In this document: positions 29,904 through 40,887 of the stretch, in pieces | Position numbering within the stretch: the first letter of the stretch is position 1 | Layout of the letters: every line of letters starts with the position of its first letter | Assembly (NCBI GenBank): GCA_963830715.1 | Contig: CAWHNS010000002.1 | Location: 217,482 to 281,481, forward strand | Source of the DNA: an uncultured delta proteobacterium | GTDB taxonomy: Bacteria > Desulfobacterota > Binatia > Binatales > Binataceae | DNA length: 64,000 nt | Direction: 5' to 3' | Notes under the pieces: model-generated | The model's database searches: none | What the model saw: only the letters and a program-made list of their open reading frames with translations | What the model was told of the DNA's origin: nothing | Made by a program: the position numbers and the translations under genes

Positions 29904-30593
29904 ATGATTGACCTTTACTATTGGCCTACGCCGAACGGACACAAGATCACGATCTATCTCGAAGAAACCGGGCTGGAGTACCGCATCGTTCCCGTCAACA
30001 TCCGCGAGGGCGATCAGTTCAAGCCCGAGTTCCTGAAGATCAGTCCGAACAACCGGATGCCCGCGATCGTCGATTCCGACGGACCCGGCGGCAAGCCGAT
30101 TTCGCTGTTCGAGTCGGGCGCGATCCTGCTCTATCTCGGCGAGAAGACCGGCAAGTTGCTGCCCTTGAAATCCGCGCGCGTTATGAAGTCGTGCAGTGGC
30201 TGATGTTCCAGATGGCGAACGTCGGTCCGATGTTCGGCCAGCGCGGCCATTTCCTGCGCGCGGCGCCCGAGAAGATTCCGTACGCGATCGAACGATACAC
30301 CAACGAGTCACGCCGGCTGCTAGACGTGATGGACCGGCGGCTCGGCCAGTCCGCATACCTGGCGGGCGACTACTCGATCGCCGACATCGCAACCTACCCG
30401 TGGGTAGTAGGCACCCGTCGCGAGCCGGAACAACTCGAGTAGCCGTCCCAACTTCAAGCGCTGGCTCGAAGCGATCTCAGAGCGCCCCGCGGTAAAGCGC
30501 GGCGTGGCGGTGATGGCCAACCTGCCGCAACAACCGCTCGACGACAAGGCGCGATCGATACTATACGGCGCCAAACAATTCGAGCGCCGCTGA
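29904..30593 (+). CDS. Nu-class glutathione S-transferase (YfcG-like), two apparent frameshifts (near 30165 and 30440)
   Basis: [21 protein letters not shown]...[12 protein letters not shown]...[17 protein letters not shown] closely matches YfcG. The continuation ([33 protein letters not shown]) and the end ([19 protein letters not shown]...FERR, stop 30591-30593) lie in the other two frames. Confidence 0.8.
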
Positions 30594-30656
30594 CTGGCGA
30601 GCGAGGATAGCGGACCGTCTGGCGAGGCGTTTGACATAGGCAGCGAGGGCGCCGAT

Positions 30657-30953
30657 ATGTCTAAGCTGGGAAAAAGGCCGATCAGGGCCGCCAAGGAAGT
30701 CCACGGAATCGTAAGCGGCGAGATTACGTCCGGTTTTGTCGTGCATGTCCCGGATGATGTTGACGTGAAAGCGCTGAGAAAGCGGCTCGGCTATTCGCAG
30801 TCGCAATTTTCGCGACGCTTCGGGTTCGCCATCGACGCGGTACAGGATTGGGAGCAGCGTCGCAGGACGCCGGACCGAACGGCGCGCGTTTTCTTGACCG
30901 TCATAGCGCGCGAACCGGAGGCGGTCAGCCGCGCGCTGGGGCGATCACACTGA
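30657..30953 (+). CDS. XRE-type HTH protein, COG2944-like (antitoxin-like), no partner toxin seen
   Basis: VKALRKRLGYSQSQFSRRFGFAIDAVQDWEQRRRTPDRTARVFL resembles the HTH of HigA/YiaG-like antitoxins. No small toxin ORF is adjacent. Confidence 0.55.
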   Translation: MSKLGKRPIRAAKEVHGIVSGEITSGFVVHVPDDVDVKALRKRLGYSQSQFSRRFGFAIDAVQDWEQRRRTPDRTARVFLTVIAREPEAVSRALGRSH

Positions 30954-31070
30954 AGAATCGCCTCCCACAACGCGAGCAGAGAGACCGTCTGGCGACCGCC
31001 GTCAGTCCAATATAAAACGATCGCAAGCGCCCCCTTAGCTCAGATGGATAGAGCACAGGATTCCTAATCC
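30952..31070. repeat. direct repeat, left copy (tRNA-Arg upstream flank plus tRNA 5' half)
   Basis: Matches 34416-34533 except at cctcccacaacg versus cctccgcaacg. Confidence 0.9.
31029..31070 (+). pseudogene. truncated tRNA-Arg(CCT) fragment (positions 1 to about 42 only)
   Basis: gcccccttagctcagatggatagagcacaggattcctaatcc is identical to the 5' part of the intact gene at 34492. It then diverges (attacgg...), with no T-arm or 3' acceptor strand. Confidence 0.85.
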
Positions 31071-31338
31071 ATTACGGAACGTAGGGATTTCGTGCCAACG
31101 GGGCGTTATCGAGGAAAATCGGGGCTATTCTGGATCGATAGCGCCCCGTCCCGACCCGTCAAAACCGATAGCGGTCAAGAGTTTGGTGCCAAGTCGGTGC
31201 CAGTTTTTTGGGAGGCGCGCGGCGCTCATCGCCTGGGATCGGCGGCTCCGCGAGATTCTGAGGCAAGCCCGCGCCCAAGGTGATCGAGCTTCACCCGACC
31301 GTCGCGGCTTGAAAACGCACGCCGCAAAATCCGTGGTT

Positions 31339-31806
31339 CTAGGGCTGCACGCTGAAAGTCCCGTGAACCGTGATGATATTGGTTTTGGAAGTCGCGATCG
31401 TTCCGGTAACTCGGCCCTCGAATGAAGGGCCGCCCGGAGTAAAAACTAGATCTAAGCCGCCGATATAACCGGTTCCGCATTGGAGTCCCATGGCCACGCC
31501 GACCAGATCTTGTCCGTCTTCCTCTAGAATCTCCGAATAGATCGGCAGGCAGCCGCCCACTTCGACCCCCTCGTCCGCGCCTTCAAGTATTTGGATACTA
31601 GTTTTGTGGCCCGACTTGATCAGTGTCCCCTCTAGCAAGGTGCAATAGCACTGGCCGGAGGCGCAGTACGAATCAAAACCGTCGTCGCAGGTTCCGTTGT
31701 TGAAAAGCCCCGATGCGCTGAATGAGCCGGTGACGACTCCCGCCCGCGCGGGAATGGCGGCCAGCAGTACCGTGATCAGGAAAAGCGGAAGTGTTTTGAT
31801 CGTCAT
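31339..31806 (-). CDS. hypothetical secreted protein (Cys/Gly-rich)
   Basis: Signal peptide MTIKTLPLFLITVLLAAIPARA. No recognised family. Lies in the AT-richer island. Confidence 0.5.
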   Translation of the reverse strand: MTIKTLPLFLITVLLAAIPARAGVVTGSFSASGLFNNGTCDDGFDSYCASGQCYCTLLEGTLIKSGHKTSIQILEGADEGVEVGGCLPIYSEILEEDGQDLVGVAMGLQCGTGYIGGLDLVFTPGGPSFEGRVTGTIATSKTNIITVHGTFSVQP

Positions 31807-31858
31807 TTTGAACTCTCCTTATTGCGCGGCCCGTCATCTTACTCGTTGGTCAATCTTC

Positions 31859-32477
31859 TCAAGCAACAGGGCGCTGGGCTTTCTTACATTCCTTCCGGGA
31901 GCAAAATATGTCGTGAGCATTGTCATAAATCGGAACATCCTGATCTTTGTGAGCAGCGTCCATTGCCGCTTTGACCACCGCCAAGCCGATGCGCGGAACA
32001 TTCTGATCCTTGTGGGCCGCGTCCATCGTATTCAGCCAGCGGGTCTTTACCCATACGAGAAGCAATCGGTAACGAGAAGCCTGCTCGCCAGGATAGAGGA
32101 GCGTCAGATCAACAACACAACTAACCTGAGCAACCGGAATCGCAACCTCGTCCTGCGTTGATTGAGCGCCGCAATCGCAACCGCCCTTATCCTGAGCGGC
32201 GCAAGTTACCCCATTAGGTGCGCAGCCAAGGAAAAACATAGCGACGCCATACAGCGTGCCACGGCTCGCGACGCCGGGCGGGCAAGGATCGATCAAAATG
32301 CAGCTATGTGTTTTGGCGTTCGGCAATTCCGATAGTTCGGTAACAAATTTCATTCAAGGCTGCTCCGTCGCTATGAGTTTGCATTTCTCGACTTTCGTCA
32401 AAGGGCGAACCGCCCGCGAGGGCCGGGGAGCCCGCGAACAGGAGCGCGAGCGCCGCCACGATCCCGCGCCGGTTTCA
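31859..32477 (-). CDS. hypothetical secreted Cys-rich protein with internal MDAAHKDQxVP duplication (reading frame broken twice near 32355 and 32460)
   Basis: The ATG at 32477 overlaps the stop of the upstream gene (ATGA). The signal-like MKPAR/GIVAALALLFAGSPALAGG needs one base skipped, and the body is ORF 31859..32353. Which parts are real coding sequence is uncertain. Confidence 0.35.
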
Positions 32478-32858
32478 TTGTCCTATCTTTTCGATACATC
32501 GCTGAAAAACTTGCTCTGCTAGGTATTCTCCGGGTAGCGAACGAAACGCGTACACTTCAGCAACGACCCTAAGCTCGTCGGCTTCAATCTGATTTTTTTC
32601 AGCCTGCGAGAGGGGCTGGTATTTCTGCTCGCGCTGGTGTCTTTCCGCGCCATCATGGATTAAGGTTATCCACTCAGATTCCGGCATGCCGTCATTCCGG
32701 GTCTTCGCCGCATATAGGACAAGGGCTCTCTCAGCTTTGCATTGCGAGATTCCCGACGCGATTACATCGGCATCCAGATCGGACTCCTGCGCCCGCGCCG
32801 GACCCGCGAGCAGCAGCCCCACAAGAAAAACCGGCCACACTTTGAGTACCATGAACAT
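32475..32858 (-). CDS. small secreted protein, paralog 1 of island cassette
   Basis: The AGGAGA RBS and M(F)MVLKVWPVFLVGLLLAGPARAQESDL signal peptide are identical to the gene at 33784..34134. Both end in FRSLPGEYLAEQxFQRCIEKxGQ. The ORF-track N-terminal extension is unlikely. Confidence 0.55.
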   Translation of the reverse strand: MFMVLKVWPVFLVGLLLAGPARAQESDLDADVIASGISQCKAERALVLYAAKTRNDGMPESEWITLIHDGAERHQREQKYQPLSQAEKNQIEADELRVVAEVYAFRSLPGEYLAEQVFQRCIEKIGQ

Positions 32859-32976
32859 ACTCTCCTGATAGACGTGTTCCACGTCTGTCTGTAGCATCAC
32901 CCTGCCACGGAAAACGAGGCAAGCCCCCGTTCGGAGCAGCCGAGTCCGCCGCGCCCGCGTAGCTGCGGGGCGGAAG
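32776..32976. repeat. 201-nt direct repeat, copy 1 (5' region plus signal peptide of small secreted protein gene)
   Basis: Differs from 34052-34251 by one single-base indel and one substitution (hand alignment). Confidence 0.9.
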
Positions 32977-33167
32977 GGGATGCGAGGGAGCGGCGATGAG
33001 AGGCGGCAAAGCACAAATCCCTTTCATAGATCGGAATGTCCCTTGAAGCGGGTTCTCGCTTTTTACGGCGCGGGTTCGATTCGCCAGGACAGCCGCTCTA
33101 CGGTCCGATAAGGCTCCGACCGGGGTGCCTGCGCAGAAGACCGCTTCGATGGTCAATCGACAGATTC

Positions 33168-33787
33168 TCACTTGCCCAAGTTCTCGGCCATGGTGGTAGC
33201 ATAGTCACAGTCAAACCAGTCGCGCGCGATGCAACGTTGGGCGGCCTTAAGTGGCAGATCATATTCGCAGACGAGTTGATGTAGCCGGTTTTCGAGGCCG
33301 TCCTTTACTCGCGCGTCACTCCAGAATTGCGGCCAAAGGTTGCGTGGATCATTTGATCCACCTAGTTCTAACGGAATCAAATGATCAAGTTCGCAGCAGG
33401 TATCGTCGGCCCCCTTTGGCAATAACACCGGGCCGGGTTTGCGGTTGTATTCGGCAAAAATTCTCTTCCGTATGTCATCGGGTACTTGGCGCTGGCGCTT
33501 GGCCCATCCGACTGAACAGACATCGGCTTTCGTTATTCCCGGAATCGAATCTCCCGGTGTCAGATACGAATTTGGCTCGGTTTGCTCTCTTTCCATTTCG
33601 TTCAGCGCGATGGCTTCGGTCGTGGTTCCCGATGACCAACCTACTAGGTCGGGGTCGTGATATGATCCAGTTGCGATGGCCTCGATCTTCGCGATGGTAA
33701 GCGCCACATGGCTCCTCACGTCCTGCGCGCGCGCCGAGGAACCGCGAGCAGGACCGCGAGGACTGCTGCCGTGATTCCCGGTTTCAT
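33168..33787 (-). CDS. secreted HNH-motif nuclease-like protein (signal peptide separated by an apparent -1 frameshift near 33730)
   Basis: CCELDHLIPLELGGSNDPRNLWPQ...KDGLENRLHQLVC is the HNH (His-Me finger) pattern seen in secreted and lipoprotein HNH proteins. MKPGITAAVLAVLLAVPRRARA starts at the ATG at 33787, which overlaps the upstream stop (ATGA). Confidence 0.65.
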
Positions 33788-34134
33788 TGCCCTACCTTTT
33801 CGATACATCGCTGAAAATCCTGCTCTGCTAGATATTCTCCGGGTAGCGAACGAAACCCGTACACTTCAGCGAGGAGCTTAAGGTACGAGGCTTCTTCCTG
33901 ATTTTTGAAAGCTTGCGAGTAGGGTTCCTTTTCCACTGTATCGTGCATAATGTTTATAAACTTAGATTCGGGGGCACCCCGATCACGATTCTTCGCAATC
34001 GCTAGGACTAAGGATCTGTCGGATTTGCATCCCGAGAGTTGCACCGCGATTAGATCGGACTCCTGCGCCCGCGCCGGACCCGCGAGCAGCAGCCCCACAA
34101 GAAAAACCGGCCACACTTTGAGTACCATGAACAT
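33784..34134 (-). CDS. small secreted protein, paralog 2 of island cassette
   Basis: Same signal peptide and C-terminal motif as 32475..32858, with a strongly diverged central 70 aa. Confidence 0.55.
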   Translation of the reverse strand: MFMVLKVWPVFLVGLLLAGPARAQESDLIAVQLSGCKSDRSLVLAIAKNRDRGAPESKFINIMHDTVEKEPYSQAFKNQEEASYLKLLAEVYGFRSLPGEYLAEQDFQRCIEKVGQ

Positions 34135-34251
34135 ACTCTCCTGATAGACGTGTTCCACGTCTGTCTGTAGCATCACCCTGCCACGGAAACGAGGCAAGCC
34201 CCCGTTCGGGGCAGCCGAGTCCGCCGCGCCCGCGTAGCTGCGGGGCGGAAG
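34052..34251. repeat. 200-nt direct repeat, copy 2
   Basis: See 32776-32976. Confidence 0.9.
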
Positions 34252-34415
34252 AAGGCGCAAAGGGGCGGCGATCAGAAGGAACAGGGGTCGCGACCGCGTA
34301 GCGGCGCGGTTTCGATTCGCGGAAGAGCGGCGGTCCCTGGAAATGGGAATCGCTCTTTCGCTTTCGTGCTCACGCGATGGGACGCACAGTTGCGCGAGAT
34401 TGTGACCGGGGAGAA

Positions 34416-34533
34416 GAAGAATCGCCTCCGCAACGCGAGCAGAGAGACCGTCTGGCGACCGCCGTCAGTCCAATATAAAACGATCGCAAGCGCCCCCTTA
34501 GCTCAGATGGATAGAGCACAGGATTCCTAATCC
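34416..34533. repeat. direct repeat, right copy (tRNA-Arg upstream flank plus 5' half)
   Basis: See 30952-31070. Confidence 0.9.
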
Positions 34534-34568
34534 TGGGGCCGTGGGTTCGAATCCCGCAGGGGGCGCCA
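34492..34568 (+). tRNA. tRNA-Arg (anticodon CCT), CCA encoded
   Basis: Acceptor GCCCCCT/AGGGGGC. TAGCTCAGATGGATAGAGC D-arm. Anticodon stem CAGGA/TCCTG with loop TTCCTAA. T-arm GTGGG-TTCGAAT-CCCGC. Discriminator G followed by CCA. Confidence 0.92.
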
Positions 34569-36545
34569 TAGCGAGCGATCCCGGATATGGGAATCAGATC
34601 CGCTCGGCTGGGTTGAACGCTCCGCGATGCGTGCGTGGCCCTCGAATCGCGGTAGCAGGCGGGCTGAGTTTAGGATGAAGATCATTTCCGAAGACACGTG
34701 GACGAAGGCCGCCAGCGGTGGATTGAGCACGCCTACCGCTGCGAGCGCCATGCCGGCCAGATCGACCGTTATCGTACCTGCGAAGTTCTGCCAGATGATT
34801 CTCCGGGTCCATCGCGCGACTTCCAGGGTCTCCGCAAACCTGACCAGGTCGTTGCCGAGCAGCACCACGTCGGCGCTCTCGCGAGCGACGTCGGTGCCGG
34901 AGCCCATCGCGACGCCGACGCTGGCTTCGGCCAGCGCGGGCGCATCGTTGATGCCGTCGCCGACGATCGCTACTATGCGCCCGCTCGCCACCATGTCCTT
35001 GATCCGCGAGAGCTTCGCTTCCGGCAGCATCTCGGCCTCGAACCGGCCGATCCCGAGTTGTTCCGCGAGCGCCGCGGCTGAGGCCCTCGTGTCTCCGGTC
35101 AGGAGCACGCATCCGATGCCCATCCGATCGAACGCCGCGATTGCTCGCCGGGCCTCTGGTCGAACCGTATCGCCGATGACGATCGTTCCAACAAGGCGCC
35201 CGTCGCGCGCGACATACACGGGACTGCCCGCGTATGCGGCCGGCGCCGCCGGTATCTCGATGCCATGCTCGGTCATCAGCGCGCGATTGCCGGCCACGAT
35301 TGTCGATCCTTTCACGATCGCCGCGATTCCCCGGCCGGGCGCGTAATCGAATCGCTCGGGCTCATCGACGGACAGTCCCATCGCGATCGCGCGTGCGACG
35401 ATCGCCCTGCCCAGCGGATGTTCCGAACGCATCTCCGCGGATGCAGCGATCGCGATGACGTCCTGTTCCGTGATGTCCGGCACCGGAAGCACATCCTGAA
35501 CCTCGGTGCGCCCGAAAGTGAGCGTGCCGGTCTTGTCGAGCACGACGGTGTCCACGCGCCCGAGCGTCTCCAGGTAAAGGCCGCCCTTGACGATCGCGCC
35601 GAGCCGCGCCGCGCGGCCGATGCCGCCCAGAATCGCGAGCGGCGTGCCGGCGGCGATGCCGCATGCGCCGGCCACGATTACCACCGAGATGGTGCACCGA
35701 GCGTCGCGGGTCACGATGAACGTGAGCGCCGCGGCCGCGAGCGCGAGGTAGACCAGGTACCCGGCCAGCCGATCCGCCAGGCGCTGCACGGGCGCGCGGG
35801 AGCGCTCCGCATTCTCGACCGCCTCGACGATCTTGCCATAGCTCGTGTCGCGTCCGATGCGCTCGGTCCGGACTTCCAGCGCGCCGGACTGGTTGATCGT
35901 GCCGGCGTAGACTGCGGACCCGGTGCTTTTTTCCACCGCGAGCGACTCGCCCGTAATCCTCGCCTGATCGACAAACGAATGGCCCGCGATCACCACGCCG
36001 TCAACCGCTACCAAGGCACCGGGATTCACCAGCACGGAGTCGCCGGGCCGCAGGCTGTCCGCCGCGATCTCGCGCAGTGTGCCGTCCCGGCGGACGGTGA
36101 CGGAGCGCGGAAGGAACTCGAGTAGCTCACCGATCGCGCGGCGCCCGCGAGCGATCGTCAGGTTTTCAAGCACCTCGGCCCCCAATACAAACAGCGTGAT
36201 TATCAGCGCGGTGAAGAACTCTCCGATTGCAGCCGCGGCCGCGATCGCGATCGACATGGAGAGTTCCATCGTCATCCGCCGGGCGGCCAGGTTCTCAGCC
36301 GCTTCCCTGAAGATCGGCCACCCGCCTACTGCGACGCCTAGCACGCCCGGCACGCTGACACCTGGAAACGGCTCCCAGAGCCGCAGGCGAACCCCGATCG
36401 CGGCGAGGGCGACCAGAGCTATGCGGCCGGCGTCGGCCCATTCGAAACGGCGTCCGCTCTCGGGCGCCTCGATTGCGGGCGGACGGTCGCTATCGTGGCG
36501 GGATTCGGCTACACCCGCGTGCGCGAGATCATAGTCCCGTTCCAA
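34527..36545 (-). CDS. P1B-type heavy-metal translocating ATPase, no N-terminal HMA domain, atypical TM motif
   Basis: DKTGTLT, TGD, VGDGINDAPAL and the A-domain TGES are present. GAC appears where CPC/SPC is expected (VVIVAGACGIAAGTP). TTG start. The ORF's last 14 codons lie inside the convergent tRNA-Arg gene. Confidence 0.88.
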   Translation of the reverse strand: MERDYDLAHAGVAESRHDSDRPPAIEAPESGRRFEWADAGRIALVALAAIGVRLRLWEPFPGVSVPGVLGVAVGGWPIFREAAENLAARRMTMELSMSIAIAAAAAIGEFFTALIITLFVLGAEVLENLTIARGRRAIGELLEFLPRSVTVRRDGTLREIAADSLRPGDSVLVNPGALVAVDGVVIAGHSFVDQARITGESLAVEKSTGSAVYAGTINQSGALEVRTERIGRDTSYGKIVEAVENAERSRAPVQRLADRLAGYLVYLALAAAALTFIVTRDARCTISVVIVAGACGIAAGTPLAILGGIGRAARLGAIVKGGLYLETLGRVDTVVLDKTGTLTFGRTEVQDVLPVPDITEQDVIAIAASAEMRSEHPLGRAIVARAIAMGLSVDEPERFDYAPGRGIAAIVKGSTIVAGNRALMTEHGIEIPAAPAAYAGSPVYVARDGRLVGTIVIGDTVRPEARRAIAAFDRMGIGCVLLTGDTRASAAALAEQLGIGRFEAEMLPEAKLSRIKDMVASGRIVAIVGDGINDAPALAEASVGVAMGSGTDVARESADVVLLGNDLVRFAETLEVARWTRRIIWQNFAGTITVDLAGMALAAVGVLNPPLAAFVHVSSEMIFILNSARLLPRFEGHARIAERSTQPSGSDSHIRDRSLWRPLRDSNPRPQD

Positions 36546-36557
36546 GGTGGTTCCGGG

Positions 36558-36836
36558 CTACTTCAGGTAGGCCTGAACGACTGCGATCAGTTCTTCCGCG
36601 CCTTGTGCCCGGCTGCGGTTGCGCTCGTGCGCGGGATCGACGACGTGCGTCCGGATGTGGCCTTCGATGATCTCGGCCATCAGGCTGTTGATCGCGCCGC
36701 GCACCGCGACGGCAAGGTGAAGCACTTTCGCGCATCCTTTCTCTTCCTCGAGCGCCCGCTCGAGGGCCTCAATCTGGCCGCGAACGCGCCGCACCCGGTT
36801 CAGGAGTTTCTCCTTGTCGCGAATCGTGTGACCCAT
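36558..36836 (-). CDS. CsoR/RcnR-family metal-sensing repressor with RcnR-type H3-C35-H60-H64 fingerprint
   Basis: 92 aa from the ATG at 36836 (MGHTIRDKEKLLNRVRRVRGQIEALERAL...). His3, Cys35, His60 and His64 were counted directly. The ORF-track 202-aa version is an upstream extension. Confidence 0.85.
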   Translation of the reverse strand: MGHTIRDKEKLLNRVRRVRGQIEALERALEEEKGCAKVLHLAVAVRGAINSLMAEIIEGHIRTHVVDPAHERNRSRAQGAEELIAVVQAYLK

Positions 36837-36843
36837 TTTGTCA

Positions 36844-36861
36844 TATACCCAAGGGGGTATA
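36844..36861. promoter_or_regulatory. candidate CsoR/RcnR operator
   Basis: TATACCC-AAGG-GGGTATA inverted repeat 8 nt upstream of the regulator ATG. It resembles the published CsoR-family ATACCC..GGGGTAT type sites. Confidence 0.6.
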
Positions 36862-36978
36862 GTAGCGGGTTCGGAGCCGCTTGGGAATTCAGGTAGGCAT
36901 CGTCTGCCGCGATGCGCATGACTCACGGCCGGACGCGCGGTAGACTCTATTGGCGATGACGCGAGAACGAGGTCCGCG

Positions 36979-37689
36979 ATGAGATCGGCCGGCATCCACA
37001 ATACGGCACGCGGGACGCGCAGGCGGGTACCGATTACACGCGGGGTATTGGCCGCGATCGGCGCGCTGGCGCTCGGATGCGGCTTTGCCTCGGCGCCGAT
37101 CCAGAACACTCCGGCGGTGGTCGCGACGCCGCAACCCGGTGAAATCTCGATCACCTCGCAGTCCAAGCCCGCGGTTGGCGCGGTGGTTCCGGTTTACGTG
37201 TCGGTCGCCAACGGAACCGACGTGCCACGCGCGATCGTGCCGAGCCAGGTATTCGCGCTCGACGGCAACGGCGACCGTATCGCGCCGCTGCCGCCGGGCG
37301 AAGCGGCTCGCCAGGCGGGCGGATCGGGCGAGCTCAAGGCGGCCCTGACCAGCGCAGCCGTGAGCGGCGTGGCCGCGGGCGCCGTCGGCGCTGCGCTCGG
37401 CGCGGCAGCCGGGGCCGCGTTCGGCTCGGCCGGAACCGGCGCGGCGCTCGGATCGGCGATCGGGGGCGGCGAGGGGATGCTGGCAGGCGCGCCGGCCGGC
37501 CAGCAGGAGGCGCGCCGCCAGGCCAGCGAGCAGATCGGGGCGCTCGCGCTCCAGGGCGGCGACGTCGCGAAAGACTTCACTGTCAGCGGTTACGTGTTCT
37601 TCCCCCAGGGATCCTACAAGGAGATCGAACTGCTGCTGGTCAACCGGGAAACCGGCGATACCGAGACGCTCAAGGAGCCGTGGCGCTGA
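36979..37689 (+). CDS. hypothetical lipoprotein with glycine-zipper segment
   Basis: Lipobox LALGC after a basic N-terminus, and a Gly/Ala-rich stretch (GVAAGAVGAALGAAAGAAFGSAGTGAALGSAIGGG). Confidence 0.5.
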   Translation: MRSAGIHNTARGTRRRVPITRGVLAAIGALALGCGFASAPIQNTPAVVATPQPGEISITSQSKPAVGAVVPVYVSVANGTDVPRAIVPSQVFALDGNGDRIAPLPPGEAARQAGGSGELKAALTSAAVSGVAAGAVGAALGAAAGAAFGSAGTGAALGSAIGGGEGMLAGAPAGQQEARRQASEQIGALALQGGDVAKDFTVSGYVFFPQGSYKEIELLLVNRETGDTETLKEPWR

Positions 37690-37881: not shown

Positions 37882-40800
37882 CTACTTCGGTTGCGGAGTA
37901 GGCGTCGCCTTCGGCTTGGGCGTCGGAGTCGGCGCCGGTACTGACCCGCTCAATGCCACCTCGAGCGGGTTGGCGGTCGCGTTGTTGGCGATCGTCAGCG
38001 TTCCGCTTTGCTCGCCTGAGTTTGCAGGCGCGAACGTCACCGCGATGGTGCAACTCCAGTGCGCCGCGAGCGTGCTCCCGCAACGGCTGGTTGCCTTGAA
38101 CGGGCCGCTCGTGGTGATTCCGCTGATCTTCAACGCCACGTTCTGCCGGTTGGCCAGGGTCACCGTCTGTGCCCCGCTCGTCGCTCCCGTCTTCTCGGAC
38201 GCGAACGAGAGCTCGCCCGGCACCACAAATACTTCCTCCGCTGCCGCGGCGCCCACGCCGGTCAGCGCGACAGTCTGCGGATGCTGTACCGGATCGCCGA
38301 CATTGTCACCAACCGTGAGTGTCGCGGTCTGCTTGCCGACCCCGGTCGGCGAGAAGACCACGTTGATGGTGCAGCTCTTGTGGGCCGCGATGGTGCCAAC
38401 GCAGTTGTCGGTCTGGGCGAACGCCTCGCTGCTGCTGGTAATTCCGTAGACCTGCATCGCGACGTTTGAAGTGTTGGTCACGGTTACCTTCTGAGCCGTG
38501 CTGACGGCGCCCATCGGGGCTGCGCTGAACGACAGGGCGCGCGGCGCGATTGCGCTCGCCGGTGTCGGCACTGCGGTCGGAGGCGGAATCCAGGGAGGGG
38601 TCGGAGGCGGAGCGATTGTGTAGCTGGAAGTCTTGGTCGAGCAATTGCCATGATTGTCGCAGGAGGTGACTGTGAAACTGAAGGTCCCCTGAGTCGAAGT
38701 ACTTATGGGGCTTCCCGACGCCGCCGTTCCCGAGCAGGTCGAGACCGGATTGGCGGGTGAGGTGCACGTGTAATTTGCCGTCACGTTCGCACCCTGGATG
38801 TAGTTGCCTGAAGGAGCATTAATCGTGATGGTCGGCCCCGTGAGCGGCGCGAGCGAGGTGTTGTCGATCGCGAGGTTGTTGATCTCCTGGTTGGGGAACC
38901 ATCCGTAGAGGTTGAAGCCGGCGTCCGAATACAGCGGGGCCGCTACACCGGGCGAGCATTCAACCCAGGACGCCACGGTCGTTCCGATGCTGTTCACGAT
39001 CGAGAAATCGGCTTCGAGGGCGCCTGCACCGCACGTCGCGGCGATTCCCGGCTGAAAGGCATGGTGGAAGGTGTACCAGCCCGAGCTCGCGATGCACTGC
39101 GGCGTCGAGGGTGTGGTCCCGGCGGGGGGAGGGTTCTCCGGAACGTTCGGCGATCCGTTTCCCAGCGAGATCGTGTAGTGCGCGGTGCTGGGATGGCCAC
39201 AGGGATCACTCGCCAGGCCGGTGCCGGTTCCTACGGCGAAGACAAAGTCCTCCAGGAAATTACCGGAAGAGTCGAGGAGCGCGGAGTCCCAGTCGAACCG
39301 GTAGTTGGGATGCGTCGAAGCCCAAGCCGTGTCGAGGTAGATATCCAGGCTGTCCACCACGCCCGATGGGGGTAGAGCCGGAGTGGGGGTGACGCCGGTG
39401 CCCCAGAACGTGAAGGGACCGATGCACCCGGCCGGCGAAGGCGGGCCGTTTTCGTGGTTGCCTCCCCCTCCCGGAGTACACTGCGAATTGGCGGGTGCGC
39501 CGCCAAACGGGCTTGGGGACCCATACAGGCCTCCGAACGGCCCGGCGAACTCCGTGATACTGCCGAGTCCAGCCCCTCCAACATTGGCGACGAAGATGTC
39601 GCCGACCGCATCGACTGTGATCCCTGCCGGCTCAGCGAGGTCGGTGCTGCCGCCCGCAATCGCGGCTCCGCCCGGATTCACAGCGAAGCTCGGCTGGGTG
39701 TCGCCGTCGCTGAACTGCGGGTAGATGGTGACTTCGTTGGTGTTCAGATTAGTGGCGTAAATGTTGTTGCTTGAATCGACCGCGACGCCCGCCGGGTTGT
39801 TCAGGCCCGTGTCGGGGCCCGAGATTGTGGCGATCGGCGTAGGGTTGAGCGTGCCCGTGCCGGCTCCCAACGCCGCGTACTCGGTGATGCTGTTGTTGCC
39901 GGAGTTCGAGACGTAGACGTTGCCGAGGTCGTCGAACGCCACCTCTGTCGGGGACGAGAGGCCGGTGCTGCCGCCGAAAATCCTGGCCGTGAACCCGACG
40001 TTGCCGTTAGCGCTCAGCGGATACACAGTCACGCTGTTGCCCGAATAGTTCGGTACGTAGAGCGCGGGGCCCGGACCGATGGCCGGCCTCCCCGGGGCAT
40101 TAAGCCCGGTGGCGCCACCGCCGATGGTGGCGACGGGCGCTACGTTAGCCGCGGGCGGACCACTGCAGGTGGATGTCAACGACGCGGCCGAGTACACGGT
40201 GATAGTGCTGTTGCCGAAGTTCGCGACGTAGAGATTGCCGCTGGAGTCAAGCACATCACCCGCCGGAACACTAAGGTTGGTGGCAGGGCCGTTCAGGTTG
40301 CAGTCTGGCGACAAGTTGCACGCCACCCCTGGAGTGCAGGCTGTGAGGGTGGTCGCCTTGTACTCGAACACCGCGTACGGGGTGTCAGTATTGTAGGACG
40401 TGGCGAGATTCGTAACCCAAACGTTGCTGTTTCGCGGATCGAGCGCAACCGCGCGCACGCCGTTGCCCGGATTGCCCAACCCGGTGTTCCCGCCCTGCAG
40501 GTAAAGGTACGGCGCGATGTTGCTCGGATTGTTGGCAAAGTCGGACTGATAATAGGCGGTGAAGAAGGTGCTGTTGGGGAATACGCCGAGCCGCGCGTGG
40601 AAGCCGTCCGACGACGAAGCTATCCCGCTGGCGTAATCCGGCGTGACGAACCCCGACGGTTCGCGGGTCACGTTGCCGTTGAAATAAGGGTCCCAGTCGA
40701 AGATGCCGGAAACCAGCCCGAACGGGTAGCTCACAATCGTGTCAAAGTTCTGTGAGTATGTGTAATCGGGTCCAGCGCCGCCACTGCTGCCCTTGCGCGG

Positions 40801-40887
40801 CGTCTCGGAAGCCCAGCTGACGAGTACGCCCGCCAATACGGCCACAGCCAGCGCGGCCGCAATTCCCCTTGCCCTCGTTATCTTCAT
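37882..40887 (-). CDS. large secreted protein: NHL-repeat beta-propeller plus Ig-like region plus two C-terminal HYDIN/ASH-type (choice-of-anchor-D-like) domains
   Basis: Signal peptide MKITRARGIAAALAVAVLAGVLVSWA. Repeated GNLYVANFGNSTITVY, GNVYVSNSGNNSITEY and NNIYATNLNTNEVTIYP NHL units. The C-terminal domains (QKVTVTNTS..C..INVVFSPTGVG..ATLTV) and the PTPTPKPK tail are homologous to the gene at 42659..44935. Confidence 0.75.
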   Translation of the reverse strand: MKITRARGIAAALAVAVLAGVLVSWASETPRKGSSGGAGPDYTYSQNFDTIVSYPFGLVSGIFDWDPYFNGNVTREPSGFVTPDYASGIASSSDGFHARLGVFPNSTFFTAYYQSDFANNPSNIAPYLYLQGGNTGLGNPGNGVRAVALDPRNSNVWVTNLATSYNTDTPYAVFEYKATTLTACTPGVACNLSPDCNLNGPATNLSVPAGDVLDSSGNLYVANFGNSTITVYSAASLTSTCSGPPAANVAPVATIGGGATGLNAPGRPAIGPGPALYVPNYSGNSVTVYPLSANGNVGFTARIFGGSTGLSSPTEVAFDDLGNVYVSNSGNNSITEYAALGAGTGTLNPTPIATISGPDTGLNNPAGVAVDSSNNIYATNLNTNEVTIYPQFSDGDTQPSFAVNPGGAAIAGGSTDLAEPAGITVDAVGDIFVANVGGAGLGSITEFAGPFGGLYGSPSPFGGAPANSQCTPGGGGNHENGPPSPAGCIGPFTFWGTGVTPTPALPPSGVVDSLDIYLDTAWASTHPNYRFDWDSALLDSSGNFLEDFVFAVGTGTGLASDPCGHPSTAHYTISLGNGSPNVPENPPPAGTTPSTPQCIASSGWYTFHHAFQPGIAATCGAGALEADFSIVNSIGTTVASWVECSPGVAAPLYSDAGFNLYGWFPNQEINNLAIDNTSLAPLTGPTITINAPSGNYIQGANVTANYTCTSPANPVSTCSGTAASGSPISTSTQGTFSFTVTSCDNHGNCSTKTSSYTIAPPPTPPWIPPPTAVPTPASAIAPRALSFSAAPMGAVSTAQKVTVTNTSNVAMQVYGITSSSEAFAQTDNCVGTIAAHKSCTINVVFSPTGVGKQTATLTVGDNVGDPVQHPQTVALTGVGAAAAEEVFVVPGELSFASEKTGATSGAQTVTLANRQNVALKISGITTSGPFKATSRCGSTLAAHWSCTIAVTFAPANSGEQSGTLTIANNATANPLEVALSGSVPAPTPTPKPKATPTPQPK

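Follow-up and report, generated by a model that had tools for sequence, protein, structure and literature searches.

In the colicin E-group and pyocin S DNases, an HNH (beta-beta-alpha-metal) nuclease domain is co-expressed with an adjacent small (~85–100 residue) acidic four-helix immunity (Im) protein that has a variable specificity region, resides in the cytoplasm and is encoded downstream. Polymorphic toxins more generally join a delivery region to a swappable toxin tip in one reading frame, with the immunity gene downstream and its product in the target compartment, with one constant region on different tips across genomes, and with protein-level selection on the boundaries. Periplasm-acting effectors of type VI/IV systems target the cell wall or membrane, not DNA, and are often encoded in tandem paralogous arrays of divergent effector/immunity pairs. 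Endonuclease I/Vvn-type disulfide-dependent nucleases, NucA/NuiA of Anabaena and barnase/barstar involve a Sec-exported nuclease-fold domain with several cysteines that would fold only outside the cytoplasm, and the inhibitor-paired cases have a small dedicated inhibitor. Here we describe a locus that recalls these systems in a 64,000-nucleotide (nt) stretch of DNA (the window) from an uncultured member of the Binataceae (assembly GCA_963830715.1, contig CAWHNS010000002.1). Two tandem modules on the minus strand each consist of a leader, a small gene for an exported protein, and a second gene overlapping the first by ATGA; an HNH-superfamily domain follows in one module and an unrelated sequence in the other. 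An earlier note on this DNA read conserved ends around a variable core as the pattern of a polymorphic toxin/immunity cassette. We lean, with slightly better than even confidence, to another account: an acquired tRNA-linked islet in which an operon was duplicated in tandem, the ends of the copies were homogenised, and the second genes were frameshifted.

Two tandem modules with near-identical ends

The module copies are nearly identical from ~34276/33001 down to 34052/32776, a region that takes in a ~140-nt leader, an AGGAG ribosome-binding site and the signal peptide of the small gene. Within it, 138 nt are repeated exactly (32776–32913 = 34052–34189), and 34252–34052 differs from 32977–32776 by exactly one substitution and one 1-nt indel. 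Leader probes of 33 and 47 nt match the two module sites only in the 64 kb (chance expectation 0). Identity returns at the other end of the small genes, whose last ~100 nt are ~93% identical and terminate in CAATGAAACC in both copies; there the TGA stop overlaps the ATG of the second gene to give ATGA in both modules. The tandem arrangement, the ~200-nt 5′ part with its single indel and single substitution, and the homologous 3′ ends up to the ATGA junction had all been reported in the earlier note and are borne out by these comparisons. Its description of the centre of the small gene as almost unalignable was too strong, as the centres are ~63% identical at the nucleotide level, with indels of 12 nt and 21 nt that are both in frame.

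The divergence between small genes A and B, estimated by the Nei-Gojobori method as synonymous (dS) and nonsynonymous (dN) substitutions, varies sharply by segment. Over the first 28 codons dS is 0.046 and dN/dS is 0; over the centre dS is 0.56 and dN/dS is 0.82; over the last 27 codons dS is 0.18 and dN/dS is 0.27. The non-coding leader, with two differences in 115 nt, matches the first codons in conservation. Selection on the protein has no power to remove synonymous and non-coding differences, and the simplest reading of the conserved ends is gene conversion between neighbouring paralogues, recent and covering the whole of the 5′ 200 nt, and older or incomplete at the 3′ end. For the centre, with its dN/dS close to neutral, relaxed constraint and diversification are both compatible, and two sequences cannot discriminate between them.

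A 19-nt motif, GCGAATCGAAMCCGCGCCG, precedes each module (two matches in the window, 0.03 expected), and the repeated unit therefore begins further upstream, across a spacer of differing length. Read on the plus strand (CGGCGCGGKTTCGATTCGC), the motif is loosely like the T-arm region of the adjacent tRNA-Arg (GCCGTGGGTTCGAATCCCGC), a likeness that may be fortuitous or may have survived from attachment sites. The leader itself has no compelling structure (fold z = −2.2 and −1.3 for the two leaders). Rfam found only tRNA in the window, leaving the leader unmatched, a sigma-70 promoter scan gave no match, and an exact 39-mer from the leader is absent from the genome contig collection.

A tRNA-linked islet of foreign composition

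The modules lie between two copies of a 106-nt direct repeat (99% identity) that is made up of 64 nt of tRNA-upstream sequence and the first 42 nt of tRNA-Arg, i.e., the 5′ half of the tRNA through the anticodon stem-loop. The islet so bounded (31071–34427, ~3.36 kb) is on the 5′ side of tRNA-Arg(CCT) and contains only the two modules and a gene for a 155-amino-acid (aa) orphan secreted Cys-rich protein (Table 1). Its open reading frames (ORFs) have a third-codon-position GC content (GC3) of 0.51–0.66, compared to 0.75–0.9 for host ORFs, and overall GC dips to 52–60% from the 62–70% seen around it; there is no host-like ORF in 30600–34527. Given the low GC3, the GC dip, the tRNA-half direct repeats and the lack of host-like ORFs, horizontal acquisition of foreign DNA is the best-supported reading of segment 31071–34427. 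No integrase is present: all ORFs in 31071–34427 are at most 183 aa long and have no recombinase match in the family libraries. The islet DNA matched no plasmid. The 155-aa protein forms a singleton cluster in a collection of 15 billion proteins, has no match in Pfam, NCBIfam, PADLOC, PHROG, or the genome and metagenome contigs, and shows no similarity to the second-gene sequence of module B.

Table 1. Coordinates of the islet features within the window
Feature	Position	Strand	Remarks
tRNA-Arg (CCT), intact	34492..34568	+	ARAGORN; Rfam tRNA 67.8 bits
Right copy of 106-nt direct repeat	34428..34533	+	Overlaps start of intact tRNA-Arg
19-nt motif before module A, GCGAATCGAAACCGCGCCG	34302..34320	−	
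Conserved leader, module A	34135..34276	−	Upstream of small gene A
Small gene A	33784..34134	−	116 aa; signal peptide same as B; mature part 93 aa; Cys in helices 1 and 4
HNH-gene start and signal-peptide n/h-region	33716..33787	−	ATGA-coupled; reads MKPGITAAVLAVLLAV...; TGA at 33718–33716
HNH-superfamily body	33168..33719	−	183 codons from GTG; −1 frame relative to signal-peptide start; 6 Cys
19-nt motif before module B, GCGAATCGAACCCGCGCCG	33066..33084	−	Other window copy only before module A
Conserved leader, module B	32859..33001	−	5′ untranslated region; almost the same sequence as the module A leader
Small gene B	32475..32858	−	127 aa; signal peptide MFMVLKVWPVFLVGLLLAGPARA; mature part 104 aa
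Broken 5′ end of module B second gene	32304..32478	−	ATG 32478–32476 overlaps small-gene stop
Cys-rich ORF, module B	31859..32353	−	164 aa; tandem MDAAHKDQxVP duplication; third frame; no signal peptide of its own
155-aa orphan gene	31339..31806	−	Intact; signal peptide MTIKTLPLFLITVLLAAIPARA; 6 Cys in mature part; pI 4.1; last islet gene
Left copy of 106-nt direct repeat	30965..31070	+	Left islet boundary; similarity ends after ...GGATTCCTAATCC

The small protein

Both small ORFs are probably genes. Their indels are in frame, neither copy has acquired a stop, the signal peptide is a textbook one (MFMVLKVWPVFLVGLLLAGPARA followed by QESDL, with a canonical ARA-Q cleavage site), and GC by codon position is coding-like (GC1 > GC3 > GC2); a helical AlphaFold2 model was also counted. 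A neutral simulation gave a chance of ~0.05 that both ORFs would stay open, which, multiplied by 1/9 for two in-frame indels, falls to ~0.005. AGGAG is located 6 nt before the ATG. The protein is acidic (isoelectric point, pI, 4.8–5.1), and AlphaFold2, run on the two-sequence alignment, places four helices at residues 2–28, 33–45, 51–70 and 76–92. The best model has a predicted local distance difference test score (pLDDT) of 87 and a predicted template-modelling (TM) score, pTM, of 0.71; the remaining four have pLDDT 83, 63, 43 and 43. The small protein is hence predicted to be a Sec-exported four-helix protein, and the positions of its two cysteines in the model are compatible with a helix-1/helix-4 disulfide formed following export.

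By sequence, it is an orphan that belongs to no known family. The searches covered 5.8 billion protein clusters (word-indexed) and 1.8 billion representatives (exhaustive HMMER), and the two window copies are the only matches, both in the word-indexed search and among ~15 billion proteins in all. Pfam, NCBIfam, PADLOC, PHROGs and Protein Data Bank (PDB) sequences likewise returned nothing (in PDB, none at E ≤ 10), and relatives are absent from the genome, metagenome and viral contigs scanned. Two giant proteins reported by HMMER among the 1.8 billion representatives, P0123 (E = 7e-29, 14 stretches) and P0124, were rejected as homologues, because they are eukaryote-like arrays of identical repeats that sum weak per-repeat scores, and BLASTP of one repeat against the small protein was empty. 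Structural comparison with Foldseek found nothing in PDB below E = 0.5, and Im structures were not among the matches. Against viral models it returned uncharacterised phage proteins of ~100 residues, including two with a lipoprotein annotation (TM-scores up to 0.78, E ≥ 0.01). These share no sequence similarity with the small protein, and as model-based fold neighbours they offer a weak lead only.

The second genes and their frameshifts

Neither module has its ATGA-coupled start in the reading frame of the body that follows. The module A ATG at 33787 encodes MKPGITAAVLAVLLAVPRRARRT and stops at 33716; an extra G near 33741–33745 would join this start to the HNH body (...LLAGSSARAQDVRSH...), with a repaired signal peptide reading ...LLAGSSARA-QDVRSH. 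The frame of the module B ATG (32478) runs for 26 non-hydrophobic codons to a stop at 32398. A signal-like stretch, IVAALALLFAGSPALAGG, is found in the +1 frame (32459..32304, with a stop after 51 codons), and the Cys-rich ORF lies in the third. Conserved programmed frameshifting was considered and rejected, since module A would need −1 and module B +1, and no canonical slippery heptamer was seen.

The DNA behind the shared signal-peptide-coding stretch is unrelated between the modules. A six-frame hidden Markov model (HMM) search sees one HNH copy in the whole window, so module B holds no HNH relic. The 164-aa Cys-rich ORF of module B has no match in Pfam, NCBIfam, PADLOC or PHROGs and no relatives in the genome contig collection, and its exact sequence is absent from the protein collection. 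The earlier note had described signal-peptide proteins with swapped bodies, one an HNH nuclease and the other a Cys-rich protein with an MDAAHKDQxVP duplication. The unrelated bodies, the single HNH domain and the duplication are all there, but neither protein is a continuous ORF, and the peptides given for them (MKPARGIVAALALLFAG and the joined HNH protein) can be read only by skipping or adding bases in both modules.

Left of the islet, a glutathione S-transferase (GST) gene of host composition (29904–30593, plus strand) is also broken, into three frames by two frameshifts: GST_N is in 29904–30203, GST_C in the 29921–30442 frame, and the C-terminus in the 30411–30593 frame. The frameshift sites are not within long homopolymers.

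Altogether, five frameshifts cluster in 29.9–34.4 kb, while ORFs of 560–1170 codons elsewhere in the window are intact. Either this interval is decaying or its consensus sequence is poor.

The HNH domain and its family

The HNH body has more than 300 homologues, with 40–53% identity over a ~120-residue core and E-values down to 1e-34. It keeps all 23 family-invariant positions, including ELDHLIPLELGGSN, NLWPQ and the distal LH, and the residues expected of the HNH superfamily, ELDH(113)LIPLELGGSN...RN(127)LWPQ...LH(147), align with family-invariant columns. The domain therefore appears, from its residues, to be catalytically complete. Named families recognise it only below threshold: PF01844 (HNH) scores 16.1 bits against a cut-off of 21.4 (E = 0.013), and PF14279 (HNH_5) 15.6 against 27.5. 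A profile search of PDB gave weak HNH-motif matches to Cas8-HNH only. The AlphaFold2 model (pLDDT 81) places HNH nucleases at Foldseek ranks 1–13, all weakly (E = 0.18–1.3, TM-scores below 0.5); these neighbours include Cas8-HNH, Gme HNH, McrA, Rhs2-CT, Cas9 HNH and Cap5. The core is not basic (pI 5.7), and the domain has no match in phages.

The homologues bear a signal peptide, lipobox, transmembrane segment or anti-sigma N-terminus, and the family is a large, unnamed extracytoplasmic one whose members are labelled 'HNH endonuclease' or hypothetical in databases. We surveyed it in the genome contig collection (loci L085–L164, proteins P0004–P0122). At 44 of 78 loci the protein is an anti-sigma factor of the extracytoplasmic function (ECF) type, with an H-x3-C-x2-C zinc finger (zf-HC2), a transmembrane segment and the HNH-like domain; most of these have a gene of ~190–200 aa 3–6 nt upstream, and both of those checked are ECF sigma factors. 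The catalytic His is replaced by Tyr (E-V-D-Y-L) in 41 of the 44. The other 34 loci encode signal-peptide or lipoprotein forms, in 32 of which the catalytic His (D-H) is kept. This split between His in the standalone forms and Tyr in the anti-sigma forms suggests that a nuclease fold has been reused as a sensor domain. It is also the more reusable by-product of this analysis, given how cleanly the family divides along it. The window copy groups with the D-H standalone secreted subgroup and is presumably active.

Family contexts are varied and often mobile, with an integrase fragment, a Tn3 fragment, IS5, and plasmid regions with ssb and toprim genes among them. A six-frame search of the 80 HNH-family loci found a relative of the small protein beside none, and across the 80 genomes and seven other contexts there is neither such a relative nor any other partner common to unrelated contexts. 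On Methylocella and Methylocapsa plasmids (L167 3015–3413, L169 3018–3413), a conserved cytoplasmic hypothetical protein of ~132 aa is encoded 65–100 nt downstream of a secreted HNH homologue. It is unrelated to the small protein and may be an HNH partner in that lineage.

Genes around the islet

On the far side of the tRNA, a P-type ATPase with a DKTGT motif (34527–36545, minus strand) is encoded beside a CsoR/RcnR-type metal-sensing repressor (36561–37166, minus strand); the open frame of the ATPase overlaps the oppositely oriented tRNA-Arg gene, whose 3′ end it enters by ~40 nt. The relatives of this ATPase are at most 74% identical (Binataceae genes from metagenome-assembled genomes at 74%), are scattered over many phyla, and have no adjoining tRNA-Arg. 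Because this synteny is missing in relatives, the DNA on that side of tRNA-Arg may have been acquired as well. Beyond it, a 1001-aa protein (37885–40887, minus strand) with NHL/beta-propeller repeats, several ASH/HYDIN-type Ig-like domains and DUF1573 is likely a large surface or secreted protein. To the left, a 98-aa helix-turn-helix protein of the NadS/MqsA antitoxin type (30657–30953, plus strand; NCBIfam NadS 1.5e-10) ends 12 nt before the left repeat, with no obvious toxin partner ORF seen beside it.

History of the locus and alternative explanations

The account that we favour would run as follows. A small foreign islet, bounded by direct repeats and lacking an integrase, would have been inserted on the 5′ side of tRNA-Arg(CCT). 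Its operon unit would comprise the 19-nt motif, the ~140-nt leader, the gene for an orphan exported protein (~95–105 residues), the ATGA overlap, and a second exported protein. The two units would be old paralogues in which the 5′ 200 nt and, less fully, the 3′ 100 nt were recently homogenised by gene conversion, and these homogenised ends would produce the picture of conserved ends and a variable core. Behind the shared signal-peptide-coding stretch, copy A carries a disulfide-rich HNH-superfamily domain and copy B an orphan sequence. The islet looks like one in decay, unless local assembly errors explain the frameshifts.

When the genes were intact, translational coupling would have allowed the small protein to be made stoichiometrically with its exported partner, which it would bind in the periplasm as an inhibitor or a folding/holding partner. 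This proposal for the function of the small protein, drawn from gene order, the ATGA overlap and the export signals, is a tentative one, and we consider it doubtful. Should binding between the small proteins and their exported neighbours be real, the locus would hold a Sec-only effector/inhibitor pair of a new protein family, and would offer a way into the large, unnamed family of extracytoplasmic HNH-like proteins that is common among soil bacteria. It seems improbable that the small proteins go further and found a new family of Sec-exported, disulfide-stapled inhibitors or holding chaperones, each coupled to and specific for a different exported effector, on a cassette that needs no secretion system, sits in a tRNA-linked islet, diversifies through recombination at the conserved ends and owes its frameshifts to assembly errors.

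Several points weigh against the islet account and its functional extension. With two sequences only, gene conversion is formally inseparable from a strong constraint acting on the leader at the nucleotide level. Assembly errors could account for the frameshifts, whose local cluster fits either decay or a poor consensus. Most integrases duplicate the 3′ part of a tRNA, whereas the repeat here holds the 5′ half. An empty site for comparison was not found, and scans of the genome contigs with the leader and the small protein were empty. The central dN/dS is near neutral, so that the small proteins may be under relaxed selection. Finally, the functional proposal draws on gene order, overlap and export signals, and HNH homologues elsewhere are encoded without such a partner.

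Among the alternatives, the one that fares best is that this is a working Sec-dependent polymorphic effector/inhibitor (toxin/immunity-like) cassette in which the frameshifts are sequencing errors, the variable core changes with the effector, and the constant ends have roles in expression and recombination. The small four-helix proteins would then be cognate periplasmic inhibitors, of the HNH nuclease in module A and of the Cys-rich effector in module B. The ATGA coupling in both modules, the unrelated bodies behind a shared signal-peptide segment and the high central dN/dS all agree with such a cassette, as does a small protein that is acidic and four-helical like the immunity proteins of colicin DNases. 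The HNH copy retains the D-H of the catalytic site and falls among the secreted standalone forms, which are presumably active, and one of its weak fold neighbours (Rhs2-CT) is an endonuclease toxin. We nevertheless regard this reading as unlikely. The conservation of the ends extends to synonymous and non-coding sites. The small gene is upstream and its product exported, while the substrate of a nuclease is not periplasmic; the HNH core is not basic, as its pI indicates; and a Sec signal is present without any other delivery domain. None of the 80 HNH-family genomes has a relative of the small protein beside the HNH gene, about half of that family are anti-sigma sensor domains, and further members of the small-protein family were not found in the databases searched. 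Two repairs of the reading frame are required in module B, whose body is without relatives, and nothing matched an immunity family, PADLOC or an Im-like fold. The earlier note was right that the small protein is exported and of an unrecognised family, but its toxin/immunity reading is not supported by the dS pattern, the upstream position of the exported small gene, the lack of a partner in other HNH genomes and contexts, the lack of other family members, or the out-of-frame bodies. The survey it called for, of the leader joined to other bodies, turned up none in the contig collections searched. Gene conversion in a decaying islet better explains the toxin/immunity-like pattern.

A second possibility is that the two modules arrived separately, as related mini-elements inserted successively at tRNA-Arg (tandem accretion), each leaving a tRNA-derived attachment remnant. 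This would give a meaning to the 19-nt motif before each module and its plus-strand resemblance to the T-arm region, and would fit both the unrelated bodies and the old divergence of the copies implied by the central dS. The resemblance is slight, however (alignment scores 17–20), and neither ARAGORN nor Rfam detects a tRNA fragment at the motifs. It is the 5′ rather than the 3′ half of the tRNA that the flanking repeat contains, an integrase is absent, and the near-identical 5′ 200 nt would still require recent gene conversion. Separate arrival thus strikes us as improbable.

It is very unlikely that the tandem arrangement is an assembly artefact, in which the assembler would have used the shared 200-nt repeat to link, head to tail, two strain variants of one locus that carry the HNH body and the Cys-rich body, respectively. 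The source is metagenome-assembled, the window proteins are found on one contig only, the relatives of the flanking ATPase are all from metagenome-assembled genomes, a near-perfect 200-nt repeat is the kind of sequence that confuses assemblers, and the frameshifts cluster locally. But the module B spacer (33002–33167) is distinct, having only the 19-nt motif in common with that of module A, and the join is therefore not inside identical repeat, which makes a mis-join unlikely. What separates the copies, the HNH body and the spacer, is unique sequence; one pair of direct repeats neatly bounds the whole segment, and the long ORFs elsewhere indicate a sound assembly.

Least plausible of all is that the small ORFs are not genes but accidental open frames in a non-coding DNA or RNA unit (a regulatory leader or repeated element), a view that would suit the lack of homologues, the central dN/dS near 1 and a leader as conserved as the coding 5′ end, but runs against the multiple-of-three indels and doubly open frames, the signal peptide and well-placed AGGAG, the coding-like GC by codon position, the confident helical model, the empty Rfam result and the weak fold signal of the leader.

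The islet account is the one we favour, and as it stands it carries a general caution: when tandem paralogues in a decaying islet undergo gene conversion, the outcome can look like the constant ends and variable core of polymorphic toxin loci.

Comparison with known systems

Set against polymorphic toxins, the modules have a Sec-type signal only, and the start and body are in different frames. The small gene lies upstream, its product has a cleavable signal peptide, and the putative HNH target is cytoplasmic DNA. Searches of the protein clusters and representatives and of the genome, metagenome and viral contigs gave no further copy of the small protein or the leader; only the two window copies differ in the DNA behind the shared region. 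The ends have low dS, and the non-coding leader is equally conserved, where protein-level selection on boundaries would be looked for.

The likeness to the colicin E-group and pyocin S DNases with their Im proteins lies in an HNH domain with an adjacent, co-expressed small acidic four-helix protein and a variable region. Unlike the cytoplasmic, downstream-encoded Im proteins, the small protein here has a Sec signal peptide and is encoded upstream. It matches no immunity family by sequence or fold: Pfam gave none at E ≤ 1, PDB sequences none, and the Im fold is absent among the Foldseek matches. The HNH domain here also belongs to a different, Cys-rich, non-basic family, and has a signal peptide only, with none of the receptor-binding or translocation domains of colicins and pyocins.

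An exported small protein beside an effector-like gene, in tandem copies, recalls the periplasm-acting type VI/IV effector/immunity pairs. Unlike those, the locus has no secretion-system gene among the ORFs examined around the islet, its effector-like protein has no delivery domain, and there is no family match. As to the Endonuclease I/Vvn type, NucA/NuiA and barnase/barstar, there is no sequence similarity; their inhibitors are cytoplasmic, and Endonuclease I needs none.

The closer relatives are of two other kinds. The window HNH body is a clear member of the D-H standalone subgroup of the unnamed extracytoplasmic HNH family. In contrast to the rest of that family, it has ~45 additional residues separating the signal peptide from the core and is frameshifted from its signal peptide, and the orphan small gene precedes none of the other copies at the 80 loci searched. 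Taken as a whole, the islet segment resembles integrase-less tRNA-linked islets, remnants like those of cis-mobilisable elements, in its foreign composition, its tRNA-derived direct repeats at both ends, its small orphan and secreted cargo, and its pseudogenes. It differs from the usual tRNA islands, in which the 3′ end is duplicated and the island lies downstream, in that the 5′ half of the tRNA and 64 nt before it are duplicated here and the islet lies upstream of the tRNA.

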